DNA of 17,810 nt, taken from a virus (Duplodnaviria > Heunggongvirae > Uroviricota > Caudoviricetes). Both the position numbers and the translations under genes were made by a program. Below, piece by piece: positions 1 through 15,230 of this stretch (position 1 is its first letter; each line of letters starts with the position of its first letter). The stretch lies in the IMG/VR virus record IMGVR_UViG_2541047874_000006; one strand, given 5' to 3'. Under the pieces are notes generated by a model. It was given only the letters and a program-made list of their open reading frames with translations, did no database searches and was not told where the DNA came from.

Positions 1-348
1 TTACGAATTACTACGGCGCTGTTGCTTTTCCGCATGTACGCGTTTCACTATCTTATAAATCCATTGCAGCGTCAGATTATATTTCTTCGCTAATTCGGCG
101 TAGTTGCGACCATCGCACTCGCTATAGATTTGGTAGTCACGCTCCGACGCCCGTCCGGAGATCCCTTTCGGGAAATAAATGCTTTGCCCACCCCAGTTAC
201 GCATCATTCGGTCGGCAATGGCAAAGCCCACATTTTCCGCCGATGAGCTGTCGAGATTGATGCTCTCAATCAGAACTTGCGATGCATGAAACGCCAGGTC
301 GTTAATGATCTCCGGTGTCCGGGCCATCTCTTTTGATTTTCGTATCAT
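1..348 (-). CDS. Mor/C-family transcriptional activator (phage middle/late gene activator-like)
   Basis: 115-aa ORF; motif block WGGQSIYFPKG...RD..IY...DGRNYAELAKKY..T...IYKIVKR aligns by eye with the conserved core of phage Mu Mor (GGQ.YIP.G...RD..I...F.GRN..EL...Y......YK..RR), recalled from memory. GGAG lies 7 nt upstream of the ATG at 346-348 (minus strand). Confidence 0.75.
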   Translation of the reverse strand: MIRKSKEMARTPEIINDLAFHASQVLIESINLDSSSAENVGFAIADRMMRNWGGQSIYFPKGISGRASERDYQIYSECDGRNYAELAKKYNLTLQWIYKIVKRVHAEKQQRRSNS

Positions 349-560
349 TTTTCATCTCCATATATCTTGCATCCTGTATAAGACCCGATGCGTGTAAAAC
401 CACGGATATACGCTAAGCAGTTGTCATTACTGCTACTCAATACATTCAACAAACAAATAAACAATCACCAAAAATATAAATTTTTAATATTAATGAACGT
501 CATAAATTCACAAAATAAATATATTGTTTGCGTTATGTTTCTTGTCAACTGGAGTATCAT

Positions 561-588
561 TTTACACGATACTGTATGTGCATACAGT
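561..588 (+). promoter_or_regulatory. Possible sigma70 promoter overlapping the LexA box (-35 TTTACA 561-566, -10 TACAGT 583-588, 16-bp spacer)
   Basis: Hexamer matches by eye; the LexA box overlaps the spacer and -10. An alternative leftward promoter (TGTAAAAT on the minus strand at 559-566) is equally plausible, so direction is uncertain. Confidence 0.25.
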
Positions 589-589
589 A
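570..589. promoter_or_regulatory. Candidate LexA (SOS) box TACTGTATGTGCATACAGTA
   Basis: CTGT-N8-ACAG with perfect 8-9 bp palindromic arms (ATACTGTAT / ATACAGTAT); only the central bases differ from the E. coli consensus TACTGTATATATATACAGTA. Sits in the AT-rich divergent intergenic region between the Mor-like gene and the lysis genes. Confidence 0.55.
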
Positions 590-885
590 TTATTTTTACC
601 TGTAGTGTAAAAAGATCGTTTCCCTCACAGTCGCTGACTTTCTTAAACAAACTTTAAAAATCAAATGACTATGGACTATTCCTACGATTCACCGTCCTCT
701 TTTCCCTGCATAATGACGCGCTTATTCTCCAGGACACCTTTTGCTCTTTTATTAATGGGTGGATTTATTAGCAAGCATGTTCATTTATAGAGGATCTATT
801 TTTTAAAGTTATTTATTAAAGCTTTTTTCATTCTTCACTGGAGGGATCTGGCGACACTAAACGCTCACTTATCAGGAGATATCGT

Positions 886-1173
886 ATGAAAAAAGTCACT
901 TTTCCCCGTCTTTCCGGCTGGCTGGTCGCTTCCGTCGCGCTGTTTGTCGCGATCGGCTGGACATCTTCCGCACAGATCCCGGTTGTCATTTATAAACTAA
1001 GTCTGGTTTCGCTCGCCGCTGTGCTGGGATACTGGCTCGATCGCAGTCTGTTTCCCTGGGCGCGGCCTGACTCATTTTGCCCCTGGGAAGAGGCGCGATG
1101 CTGCGCGGCGGCAATGATTCGTCGGGCTATCATCGTTGCAGCCGTCTGCCTTTCCGTCGCGTTAGGACTTTAG
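886..1173 (+). CDS. Small membrane protein with three predicted transmembrane segments, putative holin/pinholin
   Basis: 95 aa with three hydrophobic stretches (GWLVASVALFVAIGW, VVIYKLSLVSLAAVLGYWL, AIIVAAVCLSVALGL); AGGAG 6 nt upstream of the ATG; sits immediately before the endolysin gene. Function inferred from position and topology only. Confidence 0.4.
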   Translation: MKKVTFPRLSGWLVASVALFVAIGWTSSAQIPVVIYKLSLVSLAAVLGYWLDRSLFPWARPDSFCPWEEARCCAAAMIRRAIIVAAVCLSVALGL

Positions 1174-1175
1174 TG

Positions 1176-1781
1176 ATGCAGGTAAAATTTCTCGCGCTAA
1201 TTACTCTGTTCGCGTTCTTCCCGCTTAACGCATCTGAACCGCCGCGAGCATCTCTGGCATGGCGAAACGAACTGATTCGAACTGCACGGGAAGTCTGGGG
1301 ACTGAACGCCCCGGTGGCAGACTTCGCCGGGCAGTTGCACCAGGAATCAGCCTGGCAGCCAATGGCGCGTTCCCCCGTCGGCGCACAGGGTATGGCGCAA
1401 TTTATGCCTGCCACAGCGACATGGATAAGCCAGTTGTATCCACAGCTACGTGAAAACAAGCCCTATAACCCAACCTGGGCGATTCGCGCATTGGTGCAAT
1501 ATGACCAGCATTTGTGGAAAAACATCTCGGCGAAAAATGGCTGCCAGCGTATGGCGTTTACCCTAAGCGCCTATAACGGTGGTCAGGGATGGGTTAATCG
1601 GGATAAAAAACTGGCCGCATCCAAAGGGTTAGATGCCACCATCTGGTTTGGTCATGTTGAGCACGTCAACGCCGGGCGTAGTGCCGCAAACTGGCGAGAA
1701 AATCGTCACTATCCGAAGATGATCCTCTATCAACATGCCGCCCGCTACTTACTCTGGGGGCAGGCAAGCTGTCTTCACTAA
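1176..1781 (+). CDS. Endolysin, lytic transglycosylase (SLT domain) with N-terminal signal or signal-anchor sequence
   Basis: SLT family motifs QESAW (catalytic Glu context), GAQGMAQFMP and AYNGG; hydrophobic N-terminus MQVKFLALITLFAFFPLNA. Start placed at ATG 1176, 2 nt after the upstream gene stop; the longer ORF-track start at 1077 overlaps the previous gene. Confidence 0.8.
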   Translation: MQVKFLALITLFAFFPLNASEPPRASLAWRNELIRTAREVWGLNAPVADFAGQLHQESAWQPMARSPVGAQGMAQFMPATATWISQLYPQLRENKPYNPTWAIRALVQYDQHLWKNISAKNGCQRMAFTLSAYNGGQGWVNRDKKLAASKGLDATIWFGHVEHVNAGRSAANWRENRHYPKMILYQHAARYLLWGQASCLH

Positions 1782-1792
1782 TCAGAGGGCCG

Positions 1793-2107
1793 ATGAAACT
1801 TAGTATCGATTTTTGGGAAGTGATCTCCCTTATGCTTTCCTTCGTTGGATTAATGTTTGCTGCCGGAAAATTGCTGTTAGCGCAAATTGAAAAAAGACTT
1901 AATGAGCGTTTTGAATCTCTGGAAAACGCGCGCCGGGAATCAGAAACAAGCTGGTCGAAACTGGAAAGAGAATTTCTCGAATTTCGTGCCGAGCTTCCGC
2001 TGCATTATGTCCGCAGAGAAGATTATCTTCGTGGCCAGGCAGTATTAGAAGCAAAGCTGGATGCCTTATATAGCAAAATAGAGCTATTACAACGTGGCAG
2101 CTATTAA
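1793..2107 (+). CDS. Membrane-anchored coiled-coil protein, putative i-spanin (Rz-like)
   Basis: 104 aa, N-terminal TM segment (VISLMLSFVGLMFAAGKLLL) followed by a charged heptad-like region; located directly after the endolysin. No embedded o-spanin lipoprotein ORF was found on inspection. Confidence 0.4.
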   Translation: MKLSIDFWEVISLMLSFVGLMFAAGKLLLAQIEKRLNERFESLENARRESETSWSKLEREFLEFRAELPLHYVRREDYLRGQAVLEAKLDALYSKIELLQRGSY

Positions 2108-2253: not shown

Positions 2254-2709
2254 ATGGAAATTTTATCTGTAATTAATTCTGTTGTGACCAGATTACGTGA
2301 ACAGAATCCCGAAATGGACGTATTTATTTCATCGGTTGATGCCAATAAATATATTCCGCAGACGCAGCAAGTTACAGTGATTATTAATTATAGCGGTTCT
2401 CTATTTGCCATGCCTGAAAGCAGTGATGCCCTCGTGCAACAGCAAACGCTCCGTTTAACTGCCACCGTTATTGTTGGCAAAAATTGTGACGCGTTAAACG
2501 CACTGGATCGCATACGCAGCGCATTGGGGGGGATCCAGCTTCCTGATTGCGAGCGTCTTCTTTGGCTTGAAACAGAAATCAATGCAGGCGAGAGCGGTGG
2601 TTTCTGCCGCTACATCCTGGAAATGGCGACCAGCTCGCTGTTTATCGCGAAACGGGAAAGCACGGACCTTACCCTGCTTACTGAAGTTAATTACGAGGAA
2701 ACTGAATGA
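2254..2709 (+). CDS. Phage tail-associated protein (tail completion/terminator-like, Mu gp37 position)
   Basis: 151-aa ORF that opens the tail operon, with AAGGA upstream; stop overlaps the next start (ATGA). Assignment by position relative to the sheath gene. Confidence 0.45.
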   Translation: MEILSVINSVVTRLREQNPEMDVFISSVDANKYIPQTQQVTVIINYSGSLFAMPESSDALVQQQTLRLTATVIVGKNCDALNALDRIRSALGGIQLPDCERLLWLETEINAGESGGFCRYILEMATSSLFIAKRESTDLTLLTEVNYEETE

Positions 2710-2903
2710 AATACATCTACAACGGCCCGGCAAGCGGCGTCACCCTTGCCGACGGACAAGAAATCTTATTGTGGCCGAACAGTGAAATTGATCTGCCAGA
2801 AGAAAACGAGTGGGTTATGACCATGATTGCCCGCAATCACCTGACTCCTGTCATCACTCAGGAAGAACAAAATAACGGAGAGGAAATTGTACATGGCAGC
2901 TAA
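2706..2903 (+). CDS. Small phage protein upstream of the sheath gene (Mu gp38 position)
   Basis: 65-aa ORF translationally coupled to both neighbours; acidic C-terminus. Function not recognisable from sequence alone. Confidence 0.4.
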   Translation: MKYIYNGPASGVTLADGQEILLWPNSEIDLPEENEWVMTMIARNHLTPVITQEEQNNGEEIVHGS

Positions 2904-4317
2904 TTACCTGCACGGTGTAGAAACCATTGAAATTGAAACCGGTCCGCGCCCGGTTAAAGCGGTAAAATCCGCTGTAATCGCTTTAATCGGTAGTGCACCA
3001 TGCGGTCCGGTAAACAAACCAACATTGTGCCTTTCTGAAAGCGATGCCGCGCAGTTTGGCTCGACTCAGGCTAACTTTACTATCCCGCAGGCGCTGAAGG
3101 CGATTTATGACCACGGCGCCGGTACGGTGGTGGTGATTAACGTACTGGATCCGGCAAAACATGGCTCCAGCATCAGCAATGAGAGTATCACTTTTGATTC
3201 CAACAACCAGGCAAAACTGGCTCATCGTGCGGTGCGCAATGTCGTCCTGAAACCCTCTTCAACATCAGCCACTACGTATAGCAGCGCAGCGTTTCATGTT
3301 GATGAACAAACAGGAATAATCACTCGTGCAGAAACTGAGATCCCTGCCGGAGCGAAAGTTTGCGCCTATTACTCATGGGCCGATCCAACAAAAGTTACCG
3401 CAGCCGATATTATTGGCGCCGTTAATACCGCAGGCGATCGCACGGGGATGAAACTGCTACAGGATACCTATAACCTGTATGGTTTCTACGCCAAAATCCT
3501 GCTTGCTCCCGTTTTCTGTACGCAAAAATCGGTCACCACCGAACTGATTGCTCAGGCGGAAAAACTCGGTGCTATCGCCTACATTGACGCCCCAATCGGT
3601 ACTACATTCCAGCAGGTACTGGCTGGTCGCGGCTCGAAAGGCGCAATCAACTTCAACACCAGTTCTGACCGTGCGCGTTTGTGCTATCCGCACGTCAAAG
3701 TTTATGACGGCTCAACCAACCAGGAAGTTCTCGAACCGCTATCTTCACGCGCTGCCGGACTGCGTGCCAAAGTAGACCTGGAGAAAGGTTTCTGGTGGAG
3801 CAACTCAAACCAGGAAATTCAGGGCATTATCGGTATCGAACGTTCACTTTCCGCAATGGTTGATGACCCGCAAAGTGAAGTGAATCAGCTCAACGAAAAC
3901 GGCATTACCACTGTTTTCAATAGTTACGGCTCTGGTCTGCGTTTATGGGGCAACCGCACTGCGGCATGGCCAACCGTGACCCATATGCGTAACTTTGAAA
4001 ACGTTCGCCGCACGGGTGATGTGATTAACGAGTCGATCCGTTATTTCAGCCAGCAGTATATCGATATGCCGATTAATCAGGCACTAATTGATGCCCTGAC
4101 CGAGTCGGTAAATACCTGGGGCCGTAAGCTGATTGCCGACGGCGCACTGCTTGGCTTTGAGTGCTGGTACGATCCGGCGCGAAATTCACCGACCGAACTC
4201 AGTGCCGGGCATTTATTGCTGAGCTATAAATTCACCCCGCCACCGCCGCTGGAACGTCTGACGTTTGAAACTGAAATTACCTCTGAATATTTAGTCTCTC
4301 TGGAGAGCAATAGCTAA
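2893..4317 (+). CDS. Contractile tail sheath protein
   Basis: About 474 aa with the conserved sheath N-terminus (ANYLHGVETIEIETGPRPV...SAVIALIGSAP) and a C-terminal LRLWGNRT-type segment; start taken as ATG 2893 after GGAGAGGA, not the TTG at 2887 used in the ORF track. Confidence 0.9.
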   Translation: MAANYLHGVETIEIETGPRPVKAVKSAVIALIGSAPCGPVNKPTLCLSESDAAQFGSTQANFTIPQALKAIYDHGAGTVVVINVLDPAKHGSSISNESITFDSNNQAKLAHRAVRNVVLKPSSTSATTYSSAAFHVDEQTGIITRAETEIPAGAKVCAYYSWADPTKVTAADIIGAVNTAGDRTGMKLLQDTYNLYGFYAKILLAPVFCTQKSVTTELIAQAEKLGAIAYIDAPIGTTFQQVLAGRGSKGAINFNTSSDRARLCYPHVKVYDGSTNQEVLEPLSSRAAGLRAKVDLEKGFWWSNSNQEIQGIIGIERSLSAMVDDPQSEVNQLNENGITTVFNSYGSGLRLWGNRTAAWPTVTHMRNFENVRRTGDVINESIRYFSQQYIDMPINQALIDALTESVNTWGRKLIADGALLGFECWYDPARNSPTELSAGHLLLSYKFTPPPPLERLTFETEITSEYLVSLESNS

Positions 4318-4841
4318 TGGCTGGAAAAATTCAAATTAACCGTATTACCAATGCCAATATTTATCTCGATGGTAATAACCTTTTAGGTCGTGCAACCGAA
4401 ATTAAATTACCGGATGTCAGTTTAATTATGCAGGAGCATAAAGCACTGGGCATGGTCGGCAAAATCGAACTCCCGGCAGGTTTCGATAAACTGGAAGGGG
4501 AAATTAAATGGAACTCCTTTTATCAAGACGTCATGCGTAAAACGGCAAACCCGTGGCAGGCGGTAGCATTACAGTGCCGCTCCAGTATTGATTGCTATAA
4601 CTCCCAGGGGAAAGCGAATCAATTAGCGTTAGTCACTCATTTGACTGTCATGTTTAAAAAGAATCCATTGGGAACATTTAAACAGAATGAAAACCCGGAA
4701 TTCAGCAGCGCCTTTGGTTGTACCTATATTAAACAGGTGGTCGATGGTGAAACGCTGCTGGAACTGGATTACCTGGCGAATATTTTCCGCGTTAACGGCG
4801 TGGATCAATTAAGTACCTATCGCAATAACATCGGTGGCTAA
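4317..4841 (+). CDS. Tail tube protein
   Basis: 174 aa immediately after the sheath gene with TAATG stop/start overlap; size and position typical of the tube protein of Mu/P2-type contractile tails. Confidence 0.8.
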   Translation: MAGKIQINRITNANIYLDGNNLLGRATEIKLPDVSLIMQEHKALGMVGKIELPAGFDKLEGEIKWNSFYQDVMRKTANPWQAVALQCRSSIDCYNSQGKANQLALVTHLTVMFKKNPLGTFKQNENPEFSSAFGCTYIKQVVDGETLLELDYLANIFRVNGVDQLSTYRNNIGG

Positions 4842-4891
4842 GTTATTCGGGGCTACGGCCCCGATTTCCGCATGACCAATAAGGATACAAA

Positions 4892-5209
4892 ATGAAAGAA
4901 CATTATACCTTACAGTTCCCGTTTACTTCAGCGGCGGGAGACGTAATTAACACTCTGCAATTACGTCGCCTGAAAGTAAAAGATATGCGCAACGCGCGCC
5001 GGATCAGCGAAAAACCAGAAGAATGGGATGAACCGCTAATGGCTGCAATGACCGGACTGGTGCCAGAAGATTTAGCTGAAATGGATTTGCTGGATTACCA
5101 GGCATTGCAGAAACGATTTCAATCCATGCTTAGCGTGGCTACAGAATCCGCCACTGTTATGGCAAGCGATGGCGTTACTGGCGAGATGGTTTCGCTTTCC
5201 GCCCAGTGA
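4892..5209 (+). CDS. Tail assembly chaperone (P2 gpE / Mu gp41 position)
   Basis: 105-aa acidic protein between tube and tape measure; AAGGA 6 nt upstream; an overlapping alternate frame is open to 5297 (see findings). Confidence 0.65.
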   Translation: MKEHYTLQFPFTSAAGDVINTLQLRRLKVKDMRNARRISEKPEEWDEPLMAAMTGLVPEDLAEMDLLDYQALQKRFQSMLSVATESATVMASDGVTGEMVSLSAQ

Positions 5210-5284
5210 GATAGACGCCCTTACCGTCGATGACTTTAGCAACTGGCTGGATGAAGCCAACGCCCAAATAAAAATCGAATATGA

Positions 5285-5307
5285 CTCGCAGACCTGATGT
5301 CTGCGAG
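5285..5307 (+). other. Stable RNA hairpin (perfect 9-bp stem CTCGCAGAC/GTCTGCGAG, 5-nt loop)
   Basis: Perfect inverted repeat read directly from the sequence; overlaps the stop of the alternate-frame extension and is followed by TTT and, further on, a T8 run at 5344-5351. Confidence 0.5.
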
Positions 5308-5398
5308 TTTCCCAAGCCCGTCAGGTTTATTTCTTCCCTGCCCTTTTTTTTAGAAAAATAACCAGCGGGCCATTATCAATATTTAAAGAGAAACAATT

Positions 5399-7759
5399 TT
5401 GGCCAACGATATTATTACCCAGCTTCAGGCGCGTAATGAGACGTTGACGCAGGCAATAGCCCGTTACGGCTCACTCAACGCCAGAACATTGTTAACTCTC
5501 TCTACTCAGCAAGCGACAGTTATCAAACTAACGCAGCGACTTGCCGATTCCGCTCTCCGCCTGGAGGAAAATAGCCGCAGCCGCGCTAATCTGATGGAGA
5601 AAACCCAAACATTTGCCGGGCAATTTAGCAAAGTATTCAATGTTGAAGCCCCCGACTGGAAGTTGCCGTATGAGTTTCAGGACAATATGGTCAATATGGC
5701 GACCAAAGGTGGGATGAGTGATGCCACTCGCGAGACGCTCAGCCTTAATCTGCGCGACTGGAGTATGGATTTTAACCAGCAGCAGACCACGTTACAGTCC
5801 GCCGCTCTGACCTTAGTTGAAGGCAACATATCGTCTTTGCAGGATCTCAACCGCTATATGCCCGAGATCGCCAAAGCCGCCACCGCCACGCGCGACAGCG
5901 CCGAAACATGGGCGAAAGCCGCGCTCGCGACTCATGATCGACTGAATATTGCCCCGGAAAATTTCCACGCTGCGCAAAACATGATGTACAGCGTTACCAA
6001 AAGCGGTGGGCCTGCCATTGCCGAACAAACGCAGTGGATAGAGAAATTTGCAGGTAAAACCGGCGCTCAGGGTCTGGAAGGTATGGCTGAACTGACCGCC
6101 ACCATGCAGATCGCCATGAAAAACGGTGCCAGCGCCAGTGCAGCGGCGGAGAATTTCGACCATTTTCTACAAACCACATTTTCGAAAAAAACCGATAACT
6201 GGTTCGCCAGCCAGGGCGTCGATCTGCAAGGTTCTCTGCTGGAGCATCAGCAAAACGGTATGGGTGTTAGCGAAGCTATGACTCATATCGTGCAAATGCA
6301 GCTTGAGAAGATGAATCCGGCGATCCTCGATACCTTCAAACGCACCATGCAGATTGAAGATTTATCTGCCCGCAGCAATGCGCTGCAATCGATGGTGACG
6401 CAGTTTAATCTGGGCGAAATGTTCGGCGATGCGCAAACGGTGGAATTCCTGGCCCCTATGCTGGCGAACATGGAAGAGTATCGCCAGCTAAAAGCCTCTG
6501 CCATGCAAGCCACCAGCAAGAATCTGATTGATGCCGACTTTTCTGCGCAAATGGCTTCGCCCATTGAACAGACTAAAGCGTTACAACTGGCGTTAAATGA
6601 TTTATGGCTCAGCATTGGCTTGCAGCTTATGCCGGCGATTGGCGAGCTGGCGCAAAGCCTTGCGCCGGTTATTCGCCAGTTCAGCGCCTGGCTACGCGAA
6701 CACCCGGCACTAGTGCAAAACATTGCGAAAATCGTCGGGGCGATTTGGCTGTTTAACGGTGCGCTGAATGTTTTAAAGCTGGGCGCGAACTTCATCGCCT
6801 CGCCGTTTATTCGTCTGGTCGATATCTTCCTGAAAGTCAGGGCAAGTCTGGCGCTCGGAGGCGCAGCGAGTAAGGTGCTATCGGCGGTTAAGTCATTGGG
6901 TGGCGGCGCAAAATGGCTAACGCAACTGCTTGGTCGTGGCCTGAGCGGAGCATTGAAACTGGTTGGTCGGACCGTTCTCTCACTAGGCCGGGTGCTACTG
7001 ATGAATCCCATTGGTCTGGTCATCACTGCGATTGCGGGCGCGGCTTATCTGATTTATCGCAACTGGGAACCTATCACCAGGTTCTTTTCCGCCATCTGGA
7101 AACGTATTACCACGGCCTTTGACGGTGGCATTGCAGGTATTAGCCGGTTGATTCTCGACTGGTCGCCACTGGGGCTGTTCTACAGCGCCTTTTCCGGTGT
7201 GATGAATTGGTTTGGTGTTGAGATGCCTGCGAGTTTTAGCGAGTTCGGCAGCAATATACTGGGTAGCCTGGCCGACGGCATAATGAATGCTTTCCCCGCT
7301 CTGAAAGGCATTATTGATCAGGTCAAAAACGCCATGCCAGACTGGCTAAAAGCCACAATGGGGATCGGCACAGAAGCATCGGCTGCGACTGTTACAGGCA
7401 CGACTAATACCGCATCAGTCTCCCCCGCGACCGTTGTTCCAGGCGTTGCCGGTGCGCTTTTAACGCCGCCTGTGGGCAAACAACTCGCGCCATCCAGCAA
7501 AACGACAACGCCGTCATCGGCGCCAGTGGCAAAACCCGCGTCGGCCTCTTTACCAGGTAAATCCGTAACCAAACCGGCGACGCTACCCCCCCGTTCCCCA
7601 GGAAAAGTCCAGGTGAATTTTTCGCCACAAATTACCGTGCAGGGTAACGGACAAAACACCACTAAAGACATTCAGAACGTGTTGACGATGAGTAAACGCG
7701 AACTGGAAAGAATGATTAACGACGTAATGGCGCAGCAACAGCGCCGGGGGTATGCCTGA
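5399..7759 (+). CDS. Tail tape measure protein
   Basis: 786 aa, coiled-coil N-terminus, hydrophobic central segments, Pro/Ser/Thr-rich C-terminal region; apparent TTG start at 5399 with AAAGAG upstream; located between chaperone and baseplate genes. Confidence 0.85.
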   Translation: MANDIITQLQARNETLTQAIARYGSLNARTLLTLSTQQATVIKLTQRLADSALRLEENSRSRANLMEKTQTFAGQFSKVFNVEAPDWKLPYEFQDNMVNMATKGGMSDATRETLSLNLRDWSMDFNQQQTTLQSAALTLVEGNISSLQDLNRYMPEIAKAATATRDSAETWAKAALATHDRLNIAPENFHAAQNMMYSVTKSGGPAIAEQTQWIEKFAGKTGAQGLEGMAELTATMQIAMKNGASASAAAENFDHFLQTTFSKKTDNWFASQGVDLQGSLLEHQQNGMGVSEAMTHIVQMQLEKMNPAILDTFKRTMQIEDLSARSNALQSMVTQFNLGEMFGDAQTVEFLAPMLANMEEYRQLKASAMQATSKNLIDADFSAQMASPIEQTKALQLALNDLWLSIGLQLMPAIGELAQSLAPVIRQFSAWLREHPALVQNIAKIVGAIWLFNGALNVLKLGANFIASPFIRLVDIFLKVRASLALGGAASKVLSAVKSLGGGAKWLTQLLGRGLSGALKLVGRTVLSLGRVLLMNPIGLVITAIAGAAYLIYRNWEPITRFFSAIWKRITTAFDGGIAGISRLILDWSPLGLFYSAFSGVMNWFGVEMPASFSEFGSNILGSLADGIMNAFPALKGIIDQVKNAMPDWLKATMGIGTEASAATVTGTTNTASVSPATVVPGVAGALLTPPVGKQLAPSSKTTTPSSAPVAKPASASLPGKSVTKPATLPPRSPGKVQVNFSPQITVQGNGQNTTKDIQNVLTMSKRELERMINDVMAQQQRRGYA

Positions 7760-8712
7760 TGTATGCCGTTTTAGGAGAGATTGAATTTAAGGTTGTCACA
7801 TTCTGGGACGGCTTTAAAAGCACAATGGGCGTGGATTACGCCACACATGCCCGTATTGAAGGCAAACCTGGCGTGCAGTTTATTGGCGATAAGCTGGACA
7901 TGCTGGCGCTGGAATTTTCCCTGCACAGCCAGTTTTGCCAACCCACAACAGAGCTGAATCGACTGCGTGAAGCCATGCTTGCCCACAAAGCAATGGCGCT
8001 GGTGTTTGGCAACGGTGATTATCGCGGCTGGTTTGTAATTACAGAGTTAACCGCCACTCACCAGCACACCGATCCCTGGGGCAATGTCATTGCCCAAAGC
8101 GGAACAATGTCGCTCCAGGAGTATACCGGCGATCCGAAAAACCCACTCCTGCCCCCGGCGATTACCACCCAGGAGCCTAATATTGACGAAAAGGCGAGCG
8201 ATTTTCCGGACAAGGTGGAGTCCTGGTTGGATCAGATATTGAACGCCATTGAAGAAGGTATGCGCAAAGCCAAAGAGATGCTCGATGAACTGGCGCAATC
8301 CATTGAAGATATTAAAAAAACAGTGGCAAAGGTTAAAGCACTGATTAAAGAGGCCAAAGCGTTAAAAGAAAAGTGTGAAAAGATAATTACGTCGTTGAAA
8401 AAGACTATCGATGCCATCGAAACCCTGTTTAAACAGCCGATGGATCTGCAAACGCTGGCAGGATTACCAAAAGCGTTGTCGGCGCAGATTAAAGCATTGC
8501 TGGGTAGCCTGCCGGGTATCCGCGACTGCGCCAAAGACGCCGGGACACTGGTTGACCATGCACAAGAACTGTTTGGCAGCATCACCAGCGCCATCGCCGA
8601 AGCAACTTTCGATAAAGCCACAACGTTGGTTGAGCAGGCGCGTACAACGGTACAGCAAACCACTCCCGCAGTGACTCAGCTCGCTGCCGCGACCATTACG
8701 AGGAGCTGGTAA
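7759..8712 (+). CDS. DNA circularization protein N-like tail protein (Mu gpN family)
   Basis: 317 aa; position after the tape measure with ATGA overlap; coiled-coil C-terminal half. Confidence 0.7.
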   Translation: MYAVLGEIEFKVVTFWDGFKSTMGVDYATHARIEGKPGVQFIGDKLDMLALEFSLHSQFCQPTTELNRLREAMLAHKAMALVFGNGDYRGWFVITELTATHQHTDPWGNVIAQSGTMSLQEYTGDPKNPLLPPAITTQEPNIDEKASDFPDKVESWLDQILNAIEEGMRKAKEMLDELAQSIEDIKKTVAKVKALIKEAKALKEKCEKIITSLKKTIDAIETLFKQPMDLQTLAGLPKALSAQIKALLGSLPGIRDCAKDAGTLVDHAQELFGSITSAIAEATFDKATTLVEQARTTVQQTTPAVTQLAAATITRSW

Positions 8713-8921
8713 TGCGATACCTTGAACATATCACCACCGACGGCGAACGCTGGGATAACCTGGCATGGCATTACTACGGTGATGCACTGGCTTATGAACG
8801 CATTATCGCCGCCAATCCACATGTCGCCATTTATCCGGTACTGCCTGCCGGTATTCAGCTCATTATTCCGGTCATTACCGTCAACAAGACCGTATCGGAG
8901 ATCCCACCATGGCTGAGATAA
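8712..8921 (+). CDS. Tail protein X-like (LysM-like small tail protein)
   Basis: 69 aa; pattern D.L....YYGD.....ERIIAANP......LPAG..L.IP resembles the P2 gpX family as recalled; TAATG overlap with the upstream gene. Confidence 0.65.
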   Translation: MRYLEHITTDGERWDNLAWHYYGDALAYERIIAANPHVAIYPVLPAGIQLIIPVITVNKTVSEIPPWLR

Positions 8922-9949
8922 GCGTAACTGGCGGCGTCTTTGCCACGCTCGCGCCCATTTTTACCCTCTGGTATGGGCATAAAGATATCACTTATGACAT
9001 CACGCCTTATGTCACCAGCATCAGTTACCAGGACAGTATTAAAAACGAGTCGGATACCATCGCGATTACACTGGATGACACCGATGGACGCTGGATAAAA
9101 GAGTGGTATCCCGGCAAAGGCGATACGCTGGCGCTGCACATAGGTTATCAGGGGGAAAAACTGCTCGATTGTGGTCAATATATCATTGATAAAATTGACA
9201 TTTCAGCACCACCTTCCACGGTAAATATTGATGGCATCGCCACTTCCGTCAATCAGGCGCTGCGCACCCGTAACAGTCAGGGCTTTGAAGAGACAACGCT
9301 TTCAGCCATCGCCAGCCGTATCGCGCAAACTCACGGCCTGACGCTGGTGGGCAAAATCGAGCCGCTGACGATTGACCGGGTGACACAGTACGGCGAAACC
9401 GATGTCGGATTTCTCAAGCGCCTGGCCAGCGAATATGGCTATGCGGTAAAGGTGACCACCAAAGAACTGATTTTTTCGCATTTACCCACGCTGCGCTGCC
9501 TGGCGCCGGTGAAAAAGATCGACCGCAAAGACGTTTCGCATTTCACCTTCAAAGATACCATTAACCGCATCTACAAAAACGCCACCGTACAGCATCAAAA
9601 TAGTAAGAAAAAAGAACTGGTTATCTACACTCACGACAGCCAGAAAAAGCCGTCTGCCCGTGGAGTCGGCACCAGTGCCGACACGCTGAAACTGAACAGT
9701 CGGGCGCCGGACGTTGGCGCGGCGCAGGCAAAGGCCAACGCCGCGCTCGACAGCCACAACGAATATCAACAAACCGGAACGCTCAGGATGATGGGCTGCC
9801 CGGAACTGACGGCAGGCAATAAAATCGAGCTAACCGATTTTGGTGTACTTTCCGGTCAGTGGCTGATTGATAAATCGACTCACAGTTTTGTGCGCAGCGG
9901 CTATATCACTGAAATCGACATTTCACGCGGGCCAGCAACCAGCCAGTAA
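8909..9949 (+). CDS. Baseplate hub protein (P2 gpD / Mu gpP-like)
   Basis: 346 aa at the position of Mu P / P2 D; overlaps the upstream gene by 13 nt. Confidence 0.75.
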   Translation: MAEISVTGGVFATLAPIFTLWYGHKDITYDITPYVTSISYQDSIKNESDTIAITLDDTDGRWIKEWYPGKGDTLALHIGYQGEKLLDCGQYIIDKIDISAPPSTVNIDGIATSVNQALRTRNSQGFEETTLSAIASRIAQTHGLTLVGKIEPLTIDRVTQYGETDVGFLKRLASEYGYAVKVTTKELIFSHLPTLRCLAPVKKIDRKDVSHFTFKDTINRIYKNATVQHQNSKKKELVIYTHDSQKKPSARGVGTSADTLKLNSRAPDVGAAQAKANAALDSHNEYQQTGTLRMMGCPELTAGNKIELTDFGVLSGQWLIDKSTHSFVRSGYITEIDISRGPATSQ

Positions 9950-9958
9950 GGAGGCAAT

Positions 9959-10660
9959 ATGAAAGGAGTAACCCGGCAAACGGGGATTATCAGCGATATT
10001 GACGAAACCAGCGTTCGGGTGCGGGTCACGCTACCAGAGTGTGACAATCTGAAGAGTAACTGGCTTGCGGTGCTGCAGCGCAATTCTCAGGACAATAAGG
10101 ATTACTGGCTACCGGATATGGGCGAACAGGTGGAAGTTCTGCTGGATGATAACGGTGAAGATGGCGTGGTGCTGGGCGCAGTATATTCAACGGTAGACAC
10201 TGCGCCAGTAGCATCGCGCGACAAACGCTATGTCCAGTTTTCTGATGGCGCAGCGTTTGAATATGACCGCAGCACCCACCAGCTTACGATTAATGGTGGC
10301 ATCGAAAAAATCGTGATTGAGGTTATTGACCGTACCAGCCTGACATCGCCCAACGTTGAGGTTAAAGCCCAACACGTCACCGTGACTTCCGACACTGTTG
10401 ATGTGAAAGCCACCGATGTCAGCATTGAAGCCAGTAAGGTCGATGTTAAAGCGGCAGCAGTGACGGTAGATGCGCCCATGAGCACCTTTACCGGCAACGT
10501 CACGGTGATGAAAAAACTCACCTGGCTTGGTGGCATGGCAGGAAGTGGAGGCATCGGCAACGCCGCCACGATAACCGGCAATGTCAACGTGATTGGTAAC
10601 GTTCAGGCCAGCGGCACATTGCAGGACAGCGGTGGCAACTCCAACCACCATTCACACTGA
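9959..10660 (+). CDS. Baseplate spike/assembly protein V-like (Mu gp45 family)
   Basis: 233 aa; N-terminal region with the GEQVEVLLDDNGEDGVVLGAVY motif typical of gpV-type spikes, then repeated V.VKA..V.V strands suggesting a beta-helix. Confidence 0.75.
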   Translation: MKGVTRQTGIISDIDETSVRVRVTLPECDNLKSNWLAVLQRNSQDNKDYWLPDMGEQVEVLLDDNGEDGVVLGAVYSTVDTAPVASRDKRYVQFSDGAAFEYDRSTHQLTINGGIEKIVIEVIDRTSLTSPNVEVKAQHVTVTSDTVDVKATDVSIEASKVDVKAAAVTVDAPMSTFTGNVTVMKKLTWLGGMAGSGGIGNAATITGNVNVIGNVQASGTLQDSGGNSNHHSH

Positions 10661-10665
10661 CGTTT

Positions 10666-10695
10666 AACCCGCCTGATGGCGGGTTTTCTCTTTTT
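10666..10695 (+). terminator. Intrinsic terminator-like hairpin inside the baseplate gene block
   Basis: AACCCGCC (10666-10673), loop TGAT, GGCGGGTT (10678-10685), then TTCTCTTTTT; lies in the 98-bp gap between the spike gene and the wedge gene. Confidence 0.5.
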
Positions 10696-10758
10696 AATCA
10701 ATCAGTTTTCTAAATCGCTTTAATATCCCCGCCGCCTGTTCAGGGCGAAAATACCCTC

Positions 10759-11118
10759 ATGAACACGAAAACACGCCCCTCTACGCTGCACTGGCAACCC
10801 GCCTTGCAGCGGCCTGAAGAATACGTCTGCGGACTGGATGATATTCACCAGGCAATACACATCATTCTGCGCACACCGCGCGGCAGTGATCCCCACAGAC
10901 CGCTGTTTGGCAGCAACTTGTGGCACTACATCGATTATCCCATCGAGCGGGCGATCCCGCATGTGGTAAGGGAGTCGGTAGAGGCCATCCGCCAGTGGGA
11001 ACCGCGCTGCCGGTTGCTGAAGGTGACACCGGTAATCGACGGGGAACATCTGACGTTACGTGTGCAATGGCGCGCCGCTGACGGCGTAATCAACTCAACG
11101 GAGGTGTTATGGCGATAG
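10759..11118 (+). CDS. Baseplate wedge protein, GPW/gp25 family
   Basis: 119 aa with the conserved segment GLDDIHQAIHIILRTPRGSDPHRPLFGSNLWHYID typical of P2 gpW / T4 gp25-like proteins. Confidence 0.8.
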   Translation: MNTKTRPSTLHWQPALQRPEEYVCGLDDIHQAIHIILRTPRGSDPHRPLFGSNLWHYIDYPIERAIPHVVRESVEAIRQWEPRCRLLKVTPVIDGEHLTLRVQWRAADGVINSTEVLWR

Positions 11119-12224
11119 CCGAACCCGATTTTATTGACCGCGATCCTGCGCAAATTACCAGCGAGATGATTGCGCAGTACGAAGATGCCAGCGGCAAAAA
11201 GCTCTACCCGGCACAGGCCGAGCGGTTGCTGATTGACCTTTTTGCCTATCGTGAAAACCTTGTACGCATCGCCATTCAGGAAGTGGCGAAACAGAATCTG
11301 GTCGCGTATTCCCGCGCGCCAATGCTGGATTATTTAGGTGAGCTGGTGGGCGTTCACCGCTTACCTGCACAACCGGCAAAAACCACGTTGCAGTTTTCGG
11401 TAGCCAGTAAGAATCGAAATAACATTCTAATTCCACAAGGAACACGTGCCAGCGCCTCTGACAGCGTGATGTTTGCTACCGATGAAGATGTTCTGATTCC
11501 GGCGGGAAGTTTGCATATAGCCGTTCCCGCCACCAGTCTGGCAACAGGCGAAGCGGGCAATGGCTGGCAGCCTGCACAGATTAGCGCCCTTGTTGACAGG
11601 ATTGGTTATTACGATATCAGCGTGACCAACCTGACGGCCTCAACCGGCGGCTGCGGTGAAGAGAGCGATGACGCACTACGCCAGCGGATCCAACTGGCGC
11701 CGGAAAGTTTCAGCAATGCGGGCAGCTATGGTGCCTACCGCTTTCATACGCTTTCCGTAAGCCAGTCGATTATTGACGTCGCGGTACTGGGGCCGGACGA
11801 AGGATTGCCAGAAGGCTGCGTGGAGATCTACCCGCTAACGCTGAATGGTCTGCCGGGCGTGGAACTGCTCGCGCAAATTGAACTGGAGGTTAGCAAGGAG
11901 AAAAAACGTCCGCTGACCGACAAAGTAAGTGCGAAATGCGCCGTTAGGGTGCCGTATGAAATCCGTGCGCAGCTCACACTGTTTACCACTGCCGATCAGG
12001 AGACAACGCTGGCTGCGGCGCGTAAAGCGATTAGCCTCTGGACGCAACAGCGGCAGAAACATCTGGGACAGGACATTGTGCCAAACCAGATAATCAAAGT
12101 GTTACAAGTCGATGGTGTCTATGACGTTGCGCTGAATATACCTACAAAACGTATTTTGCAGGCGCATGAGTGGGCGGAATGCACCGCGATAGACGTCACG
12201 ATTGCCGGAGTCAGCGATGGATAA
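11109..12224 (+). CDS. Baseplate J-like protein (Mu gp47 / P2 gpJ family)
   Basis: 371 aa; GGAGG upstream; position and size match baseplate J; overlaps both neighbours. Confidence 0.8.
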   Translation: MAIAEPDFIDRDPAQITSEMIAQYEDASGKKLYPAQAERLLIDLFAYRENLVRIAIQEVAKQNLVAYSRAPMLDYLGELVGVHRLPAQPAKTTLQFSVASKNRNNILIPQGTRASASDSVMFATDEDVLIPAGSLHIAVPATSLATGEAGNGWQPAQISALVDRIGYYDISVTNLTASTGGCGEESDDALRQRIQLAPESFSNAGSYGAYRFHTLSVSQSIIDVAVLGPDEGLPEGCVEIYPLTLNGLPGVELLAQIELEVSKEKKRPLTDKVSAKCAVRVPYEIRAQLTLFTTADQETTLAAARKAISLWTQQRQKHLGQDIVPNQIIKVLQVDGVYDVALNIPTKRILQAHEWAECTAIDVTIAGVSDG

Positions 12225-12582
12225 ATTGCTGCCGCCACCGCCGCTTGCCAGCGATGAGCGTTTTTCAACTCTGGCAAATATCGCTGCCGAGCGTTTTGCC
12301 CAACTCGATCTGACAGCGTTGATGGTTTATCTGGTAGACCTGGTTGATGCTTCGGCATTACCTGCCCTTGCAGAACAATTTCACGTTCAGGGGCTGGAAG
12401 GTTGGTTATTTACCACTGATGAACGGGAGAAGCGCGATTTAATTAAGCAAGCCATTGAGCTGCATAAATATAAAGGAACGATTTGGGCGGTACGGCGGGT
12501 GCTGGAAATACTTTCGCTACCAGGAACTATTTCAGAATGGTTTGAATATGGGGGGAAGGCTTATTTTTTAAGGTTGATATAG
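12202..12582 (+). pseudogene. Tail protein I-like (Mu gp48 / P2 gpI family), N-terminal part; frame discontinuity at a G6 run
   Basis: Probable start ATG 12217 (MDKLLPPPPLA, GGAG upstream). The frame ends at 12582 while the -1 frame is open from 12546 and continues as the next ORF. Possible frameshifted gene or two genes. Confidence 0.5.
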
Positions 12583-12587
12583 AGCTG

Positions 12588-12848
12588 GTGGATAAAGGCA
12601 TGGATGAAAACCTTTTCAATAATCTGGTAGAACTCATTCATGAATATAAAAACACACGTTCAAAACTGGAAGCATTAATTGTCTGGATCATTAACCAAAG
12701 TGCTATTCCTGTTATTGGCTGTGCACTTTATGGTGGTGAACTGACGACGGTTTTACCTTTCCAGATACGGGAAGTACAGCAAAACACATCAATCTATTAC
12801 GGAACAGGGCAATGGAGCCTTGAAATTACATCTATTTACCCGGAGTAA
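12588..12848 (+). CDS. Hypothetical protein, or C-terminal portion of the tail protein I-like gene
   Basis: 86-aa ORF in the -1 frame relative to the preceding gene; lower GC by eye; stop lies inside the RBS-ATG spacer of the tail fiber gene. Confidence 0.4.
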   Translation: MDKGMDENLFNNLVELIHEYKNTRSKLEALIVWIINQSAIPVIGCALYGGELTTVLPFQIREVQQNTSIYYGTGQWSLEITSIYPE

Positions 12849-12850
12849 TT

Positions 12851-14620
12851 ATGGATAATGAGTTTTATACTCTACTCACCGACAGAGGGATGGCAAAAAT
12901 TGCCAATGCTCTGGCGGATAAAAAACAGCTTCATCTACAAAAAATGGCTGTTGGCGACAGCGGAGGGCAATATTATGAACCCACCGTCCGCCAAACTAAA
13001 TTACGTCATGAAGTATGGCGTGGTGATTTAAATACATTAACAGTTGCGCCCAATAATCCTAACTGGTTAATTGCGGAACTTGTACTGCCCGAAAATATCG
13101 GCGGCTGGTATGTACGTGAAGTCGGCGTTTTTGATACTGACGGTGAACTCATTGCTATCGGTAAATTCCCGGAGTCGTATAAACCGCTATTACCCGGCGG
13201 CAGCGGTAAGCAAGTTTGCATTCGTCTCATTATGGAAGTTTCCAATACGACAGCGGTAACACTCACCGTTGACCCCAGTATTGTGCTGGCAACACGGGAT
13301 TATGTTGATTCGCAACTGGATGAACATGAACGTTCGACTAATCACCCTGATGCTACGTTATCGCAAAAAGGCTTTACGCAGTTAAGTAACGCCACTGACA
13401 GTGATGACGAAACCAAAGCGGCTACGCCAAAAGCGGTGAAAGCGGCGATGATTGAGGCACGAAATCATCGTCATACCTGGAGTCAGATTACTGATATTCC
13501 GGATAGTACGCTGACGCAAAAAGGGATTGTGAAGCTTAGTAACGCGATTGATAGCACCAGCACGACAGAGGCGGCAACACCGAGCGCGGTGAAGGCGGCG
13601 TATGACCTGGCGAATAGTAAGGCTGCGGGAAACCATACTCACCCATGGGGACAGATTACGGGTGTTCCAGACGGCACCCTGTCGCAAAAAGGGATTGTGA
13701 AGCTTAATAATGCGACGGATAGCAACAGTACGACGGAGGCGGCTACGCCGAGTGCGGTGAAAGCGGCGTATGACCTGGCAAATGGAAAGGCTGCAGGTAG
13801 TCATACGCACCCCTGGGGGCAGATTACGGGTATTCCGGATGGCACCCTGACGCAAAAAGGGATTGTGAAGCTTAGTAATGCGACGGATAGCAACAGTACG
13901 ACGGAGGCGGCTACGCCAAGTGCGGTGAAGGCGGCGTATGATAAAGCCTGTGAGGCATATAGCAGGATTAACAATTCCTCATTCCGCTTCTATACATCAA
14001 ATGGAACATTTACCGTGCCGACTGGAGTAACAGAAATACTTCTGGAAATGTCAGGCGGTGGTGGGGGCGGTGGTGGTGGGGCAATCGCCGGAGGCTCGAC
14101 AGTGGTACAACCTAAATTTGGACTAGGCGGCGGAGCAGGAAAACCTGGTGAAATTATAATTACTCCTCTCACAGTTAAACCCGGAGATATGTACTCCTTT
14201 ACAGTTGGGGCTGGAGGGGCTGGAGGGGCTGGAGGCACACAGGTAAGACCAGAGAGTGGTTCGACTTGGATTCCCAGAGATGAATTAGGACAAGCAGGTA
14301 TTCCTGGAGCGGCATCATATTTTTCCTCACTTACTGCTTCCGGTGGTGCTGGTGGGGAAGGAGGGAAAATAATAATTATCGACTCCCCGTACGCCAACTC
14401 AGTAGGAGAGGTTCCCAAAACATACTCCAGCAACGGTGAAACTGCAGTAAATACTCCTTATGGAAAAGGGGGATTGGGAGGAGCGAATAGTGATGGCCAA
14501 TCCGGCTCTGGTTATGGTGCGGGAGGTGGGGGAGGGGCTGGTTTAGGATCAACTTCGATAAACCACGCTGCCCGCAATGGCGGTCGTGGCTTGGGTGGTT
14601 ATATAAAAATTTTATGGTGA
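12851..14620 (+). CDS. Tail fiber protein with internal tandem repeats and a glycine-rich C-terminal domain
   Basis: 589 aa; N-terminus (MAVGDSGG...EVWRGDL...LIAELVLPENIGGWYVREVGVFD...FPESYKP) matches the conserved N-terminal domain of Mu S / P2 H / E. coli Stf fibers; four repeats of TL(S/T)QKGIVKLSNATDS..TTEAATPSAVKAAYD; C-terminal 190 aa rich in Gly runs. Confidence 0.85.
   Translation: MDNEFYTLLTDRGMAKIANALADKKQLHLQKMAVGDSGGQYYEPTVRQTKLRHEVWRGDLNTLTVAPNNPNWLIAELVLPENIGGWYVREVGVFDTDGELIAIGKFPESYKPLLPGGSGKQVCIRLIMEVSNTTAVTLTVDPSIVLATRDYVDSQLDEHERSTNHPDATLSQKGFTQLSNATDSDDETKAATPKAVKAAMIEARNHRHTWSQITDIPDSTLTQKGIVKLSNAIDSTSTTEAATPSAVKAAYDLANSKAAGNHTHPWGQITGVPDGTLSQKGIVKLNNATDSNSTTEAATPSAVKAAYDLANGKAAGSHTHPWGQITGIPDGTLTQKGIVKLSNATDSNSTTEAATPSAVKAAYDKACEAYSRINNSSFRFYTSNGTFTVPTGVTEILLEMSGGGGGGGGGAIAGGSTVVQPKFGLGGGAGKPGEIIITPLTVKPGDMYSFTVGAGGAGGAGGTQVRPESGSTWIPRDELGQAGIPGAASYFSSLTASGGAGGEGGKIIIIDSPYANSVGEVPKTYSSNGETAVNTPYGKGGLGGANSDGQSGSGYGAGGGGGAGLGSTSINHAARNGGRGLGGYIKILW
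13340..13960 (+). repeat. Four tandem coding repeats (153-168 bp period) inside the tail fiber gene
   Basis: CGCAAAAAG occurs at 13362, 13515, 13683 and 13851; copies 3 and 4 are nearly identical at the nucleotide level. Confidence 0.7.
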
Positions 14621-14624
14621 ACAG

Positions 14625-15230
14625 ATGACACGATATGCGTATTACCATCCGGTAACCTTTGAGGTTATTGACTGGATAGATGCAGCCTCTTTTACTGTGG
14701 AATTACCTGATTCAGTAATTCCTGTAGATGATGAGCAGTGGCAGTTAAAAGATAAACCATGCTGGATATGTCTTGACCCATTCAAAATTATCACCACACC
14801 ACCGCCGGGTGATTTTTACATCTTAGAGAATGATAAATGGGTATATGACAAAACATTATTTACCATTGCACTTGAGAATACCAAGGCACAGGTTACACAG
14901 GAAATAAAAAATCGACGTGATGAAATAACGGTAGATTACATCATCATCAACAACCATCACTTCCACAGTGATACAAATAGCCGTATCCAACAGCTCTCGC
15001 TCACTAAAATGGGAGCGGAGAAAAAAATCCTTCCAGGTTTAATGTGGAAAACTAAAAATAACGGTCTGATTGAGTTAACCAACGAAATCGCTTCCCAGTT
15101 TGAATCGGTAACAATGGATCACGATATGCGCCTGTTCGCCAACGCCCAGCGCCATATCGCGGCGGTGGAAGCTCTGGACGATATTCAGGCGGTGCTCGAC
15201 TACGACTACTCCACAGGCTGGCAACCATGA
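14625..15230 (+). CDS. Tail fiber assembly protein (Tfa; Mu gpU / P2 gpG family)
   Basis: 201 aa immediately after the tail fiber gene; AT-rich; conserved C-terminal region typical of Tfa chaperones. Confidence 0.75.
   Translation: MTRYAYYHPVTFEVIDWIDAASFTVELPDSVIPVDDEQWQLKDKPCWICLDPFKIITTPPPGDFYILENDKWVYDKTLFTIALENTKAQVTQEIKNRRDEITVDYIIINNHHFHSDTNSRIQQLSLTKMGAEKKILPGLMWKTKNNGLIELTNEIASQFESVTMDHDMRLFANAQRHIAAVEALDDIQAVLDYDYSTGWQP

Follow-up and report, generated by a model that had tools for sequence, protein, structure and literature searches.

A predicted LexA operator between the Mor-type activator gene and the lysis genes of a lysC-linked, Mu-type tailocin island

Our results revealed a LexA (SOS) box, TACTGTATGTGCATACAGTA, at positions 570-589 of the window (the whole stretch of DNA analysed here, 17,810 nucleotides), and the quality and the conservation of this sequence make it very probably a functional LexA operator. 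The box sits in a 537-bp intergenic region (33.5% G+C vs 49.8% in the window) between mor (1-348, minus strand), which encodes a Mor/C-family transcription activator of 115 amino acids, and the holin gene (886-1173, plus strand) that begins a lysis and tail operon. It lies 222 bp from the start codon of mor and 297 bp from that of the holin gene. We consider it probable that a full cascade operates at this locus, in which LexA represses mor and Mor activates a late promoter of the lysis and tail genes; LexA binding, the promoter under LexA control and the Mor-dependent promoter are all predicted elements of this scheme. In such a circuit, the tailocin encoded by the island would most likely be fired only after DNA damage.

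The cores of the box are CTGT (572-575) and ACAG (584-587), and perfect 9-bp arms, TACTGTATG and CATACAGTA, flank a central TG, exactly in the geometry and at the coordinates that an earlier note on this DNA had given. The CTGT-N8-ACAG pattern was present once in the window, at this very site, vs 0.17 occurrences expected. The features by which an SOS box is recognised, a CTGT-N8-ACAG core inside a 20-bp imperfect palindrome with TA-rich arms, were all found at 570-589. The site matched the LexA consensus TACTGTATATATATACAGTA at 17 of 20 positions. When the window was scanned for sites with at most three mismatches from this consensus, only 570-589 was returned, and none of 200 shuffles gave one (0/200), so the earlier description of the site as a near-consensus LexA box was well founded. 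Furthermore, it differed by a single base from the E. coli recA operator TACTGTATGAGCATACAGTA (19/20), the sequence of which was checked in >5200 complete E. coli genomes. Scoring with a LexA position weight matrix, a check that had been suggested along with the box, gave 23.4 bits, which ranks sixth among the 31 training sites and above recA; this matrix is approximate, as it was built from 31 E. coli LexA sites of the literature and is not the published heterology-index table. On the same approximate scale, the score falls in the range of experimentally validated operators. The second-best site in the window reached 10.6 bits and was far from 570-589, and the top score over 200 shuffles of the window was 22.65, so none of them reached 23.4.

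The homologous control regions that we compared came from E. coli (several types), the window's own species, Salmonella, Dryocola, Phytobacter and two Superficieibacter species, together with Enterobacter-type contigs and metagenomic lineages. These loci were gathered by a scan of a genome collection (4 loci), by exact-protein look-ups and from a viral collection. The box was kept in 37 of the 46 related loci, at an equivalent position some 220-245 bp 5' of the mor start codon, and the loci that bear it span at least five genera (Escherichia, Salmonella, Dryocola, Phytobacter and Superficieibacter). Across genera, the intergenic DNA between mor and the holin gene is about 61% identical overall. 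In the 22 distinct sequences of the box, CTGT, ACAG and positions 1, 8 and 13 were 100% invariant. Positions 9-12 (578-581) were 54-81% conserved, with GTGC, GTAC, GCAC, ACAC, ACAT, ATAT, AAAT, GCAT and others as central variants. The half-sites are thus conserved and the spacer is variable in orthologous regions, as is the case for SOS boxes, and invariant half-sites around a free centre are the pattern expected of a dimeric LexA operator under selection. The site of Salmonella Infantis, TACTGTATATATATACAGTT, matched the LexA consensus at 19 of 20 positions. Among the Salmonella-type control regions that retain the island, all six distinct ones carried the box (6/6); it was absent from the island-deleted loci L014 and L015 and from the degenerate locus L018.

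The conservation was not limited to the box itself. A flank, CATTTTACAC (559-568), was 81-100% conserved in the 22 distinct sequences, and it disappeared along with the box in Enterobacter-type loci and in the locus L019. Because the two are conserved together and lost together, box and flank appear to form one promoter-operator unit. In the viral-contig collection, the box-plus-flank module was found in this island type only.

The genes to the right of the box are those of a phage tail with its lysis functions. The lysis cassette (886-2107, plus strand), which was assigned by Pfam and by the RefSeq annotation of E. coli orthologues, consists of the holin (Pfam Holin_2-3), an SLT lytic transglycosylase (1176-1781; Pfam SLT) and a small membrane protein (1793-2107). 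The contractile tail module (2254-15230, plus strand), which was assigned by Pfam and by the annotation of E. coli A37, encodes gp37, sheath, tube, chaperone, tape measure, GpU, X, GpD, V and W/gp25, followed by J, I (frameshifted), the fibre and its assembly protein. The contractile-tail set is full and accompanied by a lysis cassette, and genes for head, portal, terminase, packaging, transposase, repressor or replication functions were not found within the island. In relatives, lysC borders the island next to mor, and a host gene for a nucleotidyltransferase marks its opposite end. By its gene content, it is a headless tailocin of the Mu/BcepMu type, chromosomally fixed next to lysC. The island was present at about 93% identity in 197 of 5426 complete E. 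coli genomes (about 3.6%) and also occurs in many Salmonella, where its counterpart is the STM4195-4219 region.

Two peculiarities of the window copy were observed. Near 12563, a T-run has lost 1 nt compared with the intact 238-residue gene of E. coli A37, which splits the gene of tail protein I (Tail_P2_I, 12202-12848) into two frames. The tailocin of the window strain may be defective, or the split may be a sequencing error; with tail protein I frameshifted, the window copy may no longer make particles. In addition, a gene for a Mutator/IS256-family transposase (15576-16784, minus strand) separated the tail island from the gene for the nucleotidyltransferase RlaP (17019-17810), and E. coli A37 has no such gene at the corresponding place.

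The assignment of mor was made by Pfam (Mor, E = 7e-38), and its product also matched Mor of phage Mu (PDB 1RR7, E = 5e-8) as well as Mu C. The protein is 100% identical to an E. coli protein and 88% identical to the Salmonella protein, and mor is under strong purifying selection. The island thus has what is typical of a tailocin switch, a small dedicated activator gene that adjoins the lysis and tail operon, with mor divergent from the holin gene. A dedicated RecA-cleavable repressor gene linked to the activator was not found, and lysC flanked mor directly in every genus examined. In many genomes of Salmonella and E. coli, the mor alleles (P0015, P0016, P0019-P0023 and P0032) were frameshifted or truncated, so that the activator seems to have been inactivated repeatedly.

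Published transcript data bear on the question of which gene the box controls. In an RNA-seq study of S. Typhimurium 14028, STM14_5073 was up 4.08-fold with nalidixic acid, from 49 to 204 (PMC8072944, Dataset S1). By its size and position (348 bp, 4451529-4451876), STM14_5073 is the mor orthologue STM4219. The increase was comparable to those of lexA (6.9), umuC (3.9) and sbmC (3.6) in the same table (PMC8072944). However, the 4-fold rise is modest evidence, since about 20% of all genes were up at least 2-fold in this experiment (PMC8072944). Because lysC is convergent to mor, read-through cannot explain the rise and the induced mor transcript must start in the intergenic region. Apart from STM14_5073, none of the genes STM14_505x-507x (holin, lysis, tail) was in the list of changed genes (PMC8072944, Dataset S1), of which all but the 167 most strongly down-regulated rows were examined. 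As the mor orthologue was induced and the holin, lysis and tail genes were unlisted, the evidence favours the activator over the lysis operon as the target. The same lack of late genes among the changed genes leaves the step from Mor to the late operon a predicted one, or one that needs more than Mor. It should be added that the box was read in the Salmonella-type control regions gathered here and that the expression data are from strain 14028, for which the mor locus was absent both from the table of genes with LexA boxes (Table 1) and from the comparison with earlier regulons (Table S1) (PMC8072944). The other Salmonella SOS and ciprofloxacin datasets that we examined contained nothing on mor, lysis or tail genes. 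On the whole, the proposal of the earlier note that the activator gene, the lysis operon or both are under SOS control is supported by the quality of the operator, the conservation of its half-sites and the induction of STM14_5073, with the activator as the favoured target. In a separate microarray study of S. Typhimurium, STM4213, the sheath orthologue of window 2887-4317, was about 6-fold up with indole (PMC3405474), indicating that the late operon can be expressed in Salmonella with a signal other than the SOS one tested.

The box is overlapped by predicted hexamers of both a rightward and a leftward promoter, and such matches were no commoner than chance. On the plus strand, the -35-like TTTACA (561-566) lies inside the flank CATTTTACAC, and the -10-like TACAGT (583-588) lies in the right half-site, with N16 between them. 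This candidate rightward promoter, which had been noticed before, is indeed present in the sequence and is the sole sigma-70-like match within 300-1000, but shuffled sequences gave a mean of 2.1 such matches, so that one match is no more than shuffles give. With 9 of 12 consensus matches, it is by consensus stronger-looking than the leftward one. On the minus strand, the extended -10 that had been suggested for leftward transcription was not borne out: in GTGTAAAAT, TG abuts TAAAAT and the arrangement is not TGnTATAAT. TAAAAT itself (564-559) remains a good plain -10 hexamer, and a candidate -35 element of mor, CTGTAT (582-587, minus strand), is located in the box, 17 bp from TAAAAT. This pair scored 6.4, a weak match; CTGTAT has 2 of the 6 bases of the -35 consensus. 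Salmonella, Phytobacter and Superficieibacter showed the same CTGTAT/TAAAAT arrangement, as did L022 and L040. The conserved bases are shared between the -35 of the rightward promoter (561-566) and the -10 of the leftward one (559-564). In some lineages that keep the box, the rightward -10 was weakened to TACAGC (L022, L040) or TACAGA (L042); of these, L022 and L040 still have the leftward TAAAAT next to a spoiled rightward -10. In L041-L043, neither predicted promoter was good, and the hexamer scores compared over the lineages were ambiguous as to promoter direction.

According to the cascade that we favour, a LexA dimer bound at 570-589 in the undamaged cell would block the overlapping, back-to-back promoter elements, and the main promoter occluded would be the divergent one of mor, with its -10 TAAAAT at 564-559 and its -35 inside the box. 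DNA damage would activate RecA and LexA would cleave itself. After the loss of LexA, mor would be transcribed with a leader of about 200 nt, and Mor would turn on a -35-less late promoter by the holin gene, with its upstream block at 803-821, its -10 at 853-858 and its start near 865. Holin, transglycosylase and tail genes would then be expressed, resulting in lysis and release of tail particles. As there is no repressor gene here and lysC directly adjoins mor, host LexA would fill the role that is played elsewhere by a dedicated cleavable repressor such as Mu c, RdgA or PrtR.

The late promoter in this cascade is a candidate too. An AT-rich conserved block, TTAAAGTTATTTATTAAAG (803-821, plus strand), is the putative Mor-binding site; it was identical or nearly identical in most lineages, and it is present in a single copy, as a second copy was not found elsewhere in the window. 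It is followed by TTTTC.TTCTTC, by a -10 of the pattern xAxAxT and by the ribosome-binding site TTATCAGGAG. In the window, the candidate -10 is GACACT (853-858, plus strand), and xAxAxT was kept in all lineages. The -35 at about 830-836 is poor, and the unit with a -10 and no -35, located 65-85 bp upstream of the holin gene, is conserved. The predicted start near 865 precedes the holin ATG by about 20 nt, and TTAAAGTTATTTATTAAAG stands at about -62 to -44 relative to this start. Mu-type Mor-dependent promoters have a -10, no -35 and an activator site centred around -43. In position and conservation, the -10, the poor -35 and the conserved upstream block resemble a Mor/C-type activated promoter. 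However, the candidate Mor site stands about 10 bp farther upstream of the start than its counterpart in Mu, and its sequence is not like that of Mu Pm. A recognisable resemblance of this site to the sequence of Mu Pm or of Plys was looked for and rejected.

A possible, though rather doubtful, alternative is that the one operator gates both divergent promoters in a coherent feed-forward arrangement, in which Mor acts together with a basal rightward transcript that runs through the late promoter. The overlap of the box with both promoters and the conserved bases shared by the rightward -35 and the leftward -10 would fit this idea, and single LexA boxes that serve divergent genes are known, for example at uvrA/ssb and nlhH/higB-2 (PMC8072944). 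However, whatever is held against a functional rightward promoter holds here as well. It is unlikely that the box mainly or only controls TTTACA-N16-TACAGT, so that SOS would directly turn on the lysis and tail operon in a colicin-like manner, with transcription reading about 290 nt into the holin operon and mor being independent or merely boosting. The rightward promoter is the best sigma-70 match in the region and has its -10 within the box, TTTACA is kept and lost in step with the box, and no terminator separates the box from the holin gene in the window or in E. coli. Nevertheless, in Salmonella it was mor, and not the holin and tail genes, that appeared among the genes changed by nalidixic acid, and a terminator-like hairpin is present there 45 nt downstream. 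Furthermore, the essential final T of the rightward -10 was lost in L022, L040 and L042 though they keep the box, a separate and strongly conserved activator-type promoter adjoins the holin gene, and a single promoter-like match is at chance level.

In colicin promoters, the toxin-lysis operon itself carries a pair of overlapping LexA boxes, placed immediately downstream of the -10. A single box was found in the locus studied here. The parallel to colicins that had been drawn for it is thus a loose one: it holds for SOS gating, but a single box that would act via an activator is different from dual overlapping boxes on toxin and lysis genes.

That the palindrome is a relic, a chance sequence or the operator of another protein, without a present SOS role in this strain, is highly improbable: the island shows local decay (in tail protein I of the window and in mor of many strains) and the box is gone in Enterobacter-type loci and split by an insertion sequence in one E. 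coli, yet such a site arose in none of the 200 shuffles, its half-sites are invariant across genera in surroundings of about 61% identity, only the central base 580 and the last base 589 are polymorphic inside the window's own species, and the match is specific to LexA (19/20 to the recA operator).

Several lineages have departed from the arrangement seen in the window. The Enterobacter-type loci (L016/L017, L048, L050 and L051) and L019 kept mor, the holin gene and most of the late-promoter block and lack the LexA box, indicating that the control has been lost or rewired there. In the boxless Enterobacter-type loci, the left half-site seems to have been deleted (CATTTTA-TAATAAACACT), and L019 has a different perfect palindrome, GCTTTTATAAAAGC, in place of the LexA box. 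In L028 (E. coli isolate 648, NZ_OW967966.1), an ISL3-family element, ISKox3 (about 190-1510), was inserted in the exact centre of the box, with an 8-bp target duplication, ATACATAT, which is window 577-584. The half-sites are separated and mor is placed about 1.3 kb from the holin operon, which amounts to a natural operator knock-out. In L014 and L015 (Salmonella, with a serovar Stanley-type Mor), the whole tail island was deleted. The remnant, mor with about 190 bp of upstream DNA, stands boxless beside lysC, and its new neighbour is a gene for a hexapeptide-repeat protein.

A broader evolutionary reading, which we regard as doubtful, is that an ancient Mu-type tailocin, linked to lysC and inherited vertically, acquired a single host LexA operator in one event, that this operator now gates two overlapping divergent promoters in a coherent feed-forward loop, and that lineages later escaped or rewired it. 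In that loop, the release of LexA would give Mor, and the release of LexA together with Mor would give lysis and tail expression, which could set a damage threshold or a delay for the suicidal release of particles. The escape routes would be half-site deletion (Enterobacter type), palindrome replacement (L019) and IS insertion (E. coli 648).

The LexA-Mor cascade can be compared with known systems. The box has the same 20-bp CTGT-N8-ACAG palindrome as the E. coli recA operator and other gammaproteobacterial SOS boxes, and it is likewise in a promoter region; as at uvrA/ssb, it is common to divergent genes. It is different from chromosomal SOS boxes in that those belong to repair genes, whereas here a phage-derived activator or lysis unit is concerned and the box is farther from the start codons than most. 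In the R/F-pyocins of Pseudomonas aeruginosa, the PrtR/PrtN system has the same order of events, from DNA damage to an activator and on to tailocin and lysis genes. However, the pyocins have a dedicated cleavable repressor, PrtR, and an activator, PrtN, that does not belong to the Mor family, whereas LexA is the proposed repressor here. RdgB of Pectobacterium is probably Mor-like. The Mu-type tailocin carotovoricin of Pectobacterium is under RdgA/RdgB control (Liu, Chatterjee & Chatterjee 1994, cited in PMC13566846), and like the proposed circuit, this control leads from DNA damage to a small activator and then to the lysis and tail genes. Carotovoricin is unlike the present island in having a dedicated repressor, RdgA, with RecA-aided processing, whereas a host LexA box and no repressor gene are found here. 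With a dedicated repressor absent, the island is not a member of the repressor/activator class of tailocins (PrtR/PrtN, RdgA/RdgB).

The Mor-to-C-to-late cascade of phage Mu likewise uses activators of the Mor/C family, with lysis and tail genes downstream and a target promoter that has a -10 without a -35, for which the late promoter here is a candidate. Unlike in Mu, one Mor/C-type gene is present here, mor is divergent from the late genes and there is no c repressor. In Mu, mor is located at the end of the early operon, and Pm and Plys are unlike the AT-rich candidate block of the island. Direct LexA control of phage functions has precedents: the antirepressors of 186 (tum) and Gifsy are LexA-repressed, and GIL01 is LexA-dependent. 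In these phages, as in colicins, a function that is lethal, linked to lysis or derived from a phage is under the direct control of host LexA, as is proposed here. The phage cases work through antirepressors or co-repressors, whereas the proposed target in the island is the activator of the late genes. The LexA boxes of ExPEC endolysin genes (PMC9621596) were considered as the same element and rejected, as the sequences are unrelated.

SOS control is the rule for bacteriocins and tailocins, and the switch described here is of an ordinary type, at a locus where it had not been described. Searches of the literature for the island or for SOS control of it revealed no publication on the box, and the ST131 'tailocin' pangenome paper did not mention LexA. 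The box adds a well-conserved, high-affinity-looking predicted operator to the SOS regulons of Escherichia and Salmonella, one that is absent from Table 1 and Table S1 of the S. Typhimurium study (PMC8072944). It would mean that a domesticated phage-tail weapon has been wired to the DNA-damage repressor of the host through a Mor-type activator, with no phage repressor kept. Quinolones and other SOS-inducing antibiotics could therefore provoke lysis or the release of tail particles in carriers of the island.

The rest of the intergenic region was also analysed. An Rfam scan of 300-950 (E <= 1) gave no match. RNA folding of the putative 296-nt rightward leader revealed no unusual structure (z = -0.14), and the short leaders of the window and of E. 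coli showed no structure either (z > +1). In Salmonella Infantis (L002, 6622-6647, about window 620-640), a terminator-like hairpin, CTCACGATCGCGTGAG, followed by TTTTT was located 45 nt to the right of the box; the other strand has a second hairpin, and two GATC sites are found in the same region. A terminator between the box and the holin gene was rejected as a conserved feature, as it was seen in Salmonella only. Between mor and the box, Superficieibacter electus (L006) carries a 62-bp G+C-rich insertion (TATACACGTCATACTTCAGGTTGCGGGGGTGGTAGC...) in the mor leader, which is absent from all other lineages. Two further conserved blocks, AAAAAGATCGTTTCCCTCAC and TTAAACAAACTTTAAAAATCAA (609-665), were observed between the box and the late promoter. 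They are common to Escherichia, Salmonella, Phytobacter, L022 and L042, and a nucleoid protein or a further regulator could bind there.
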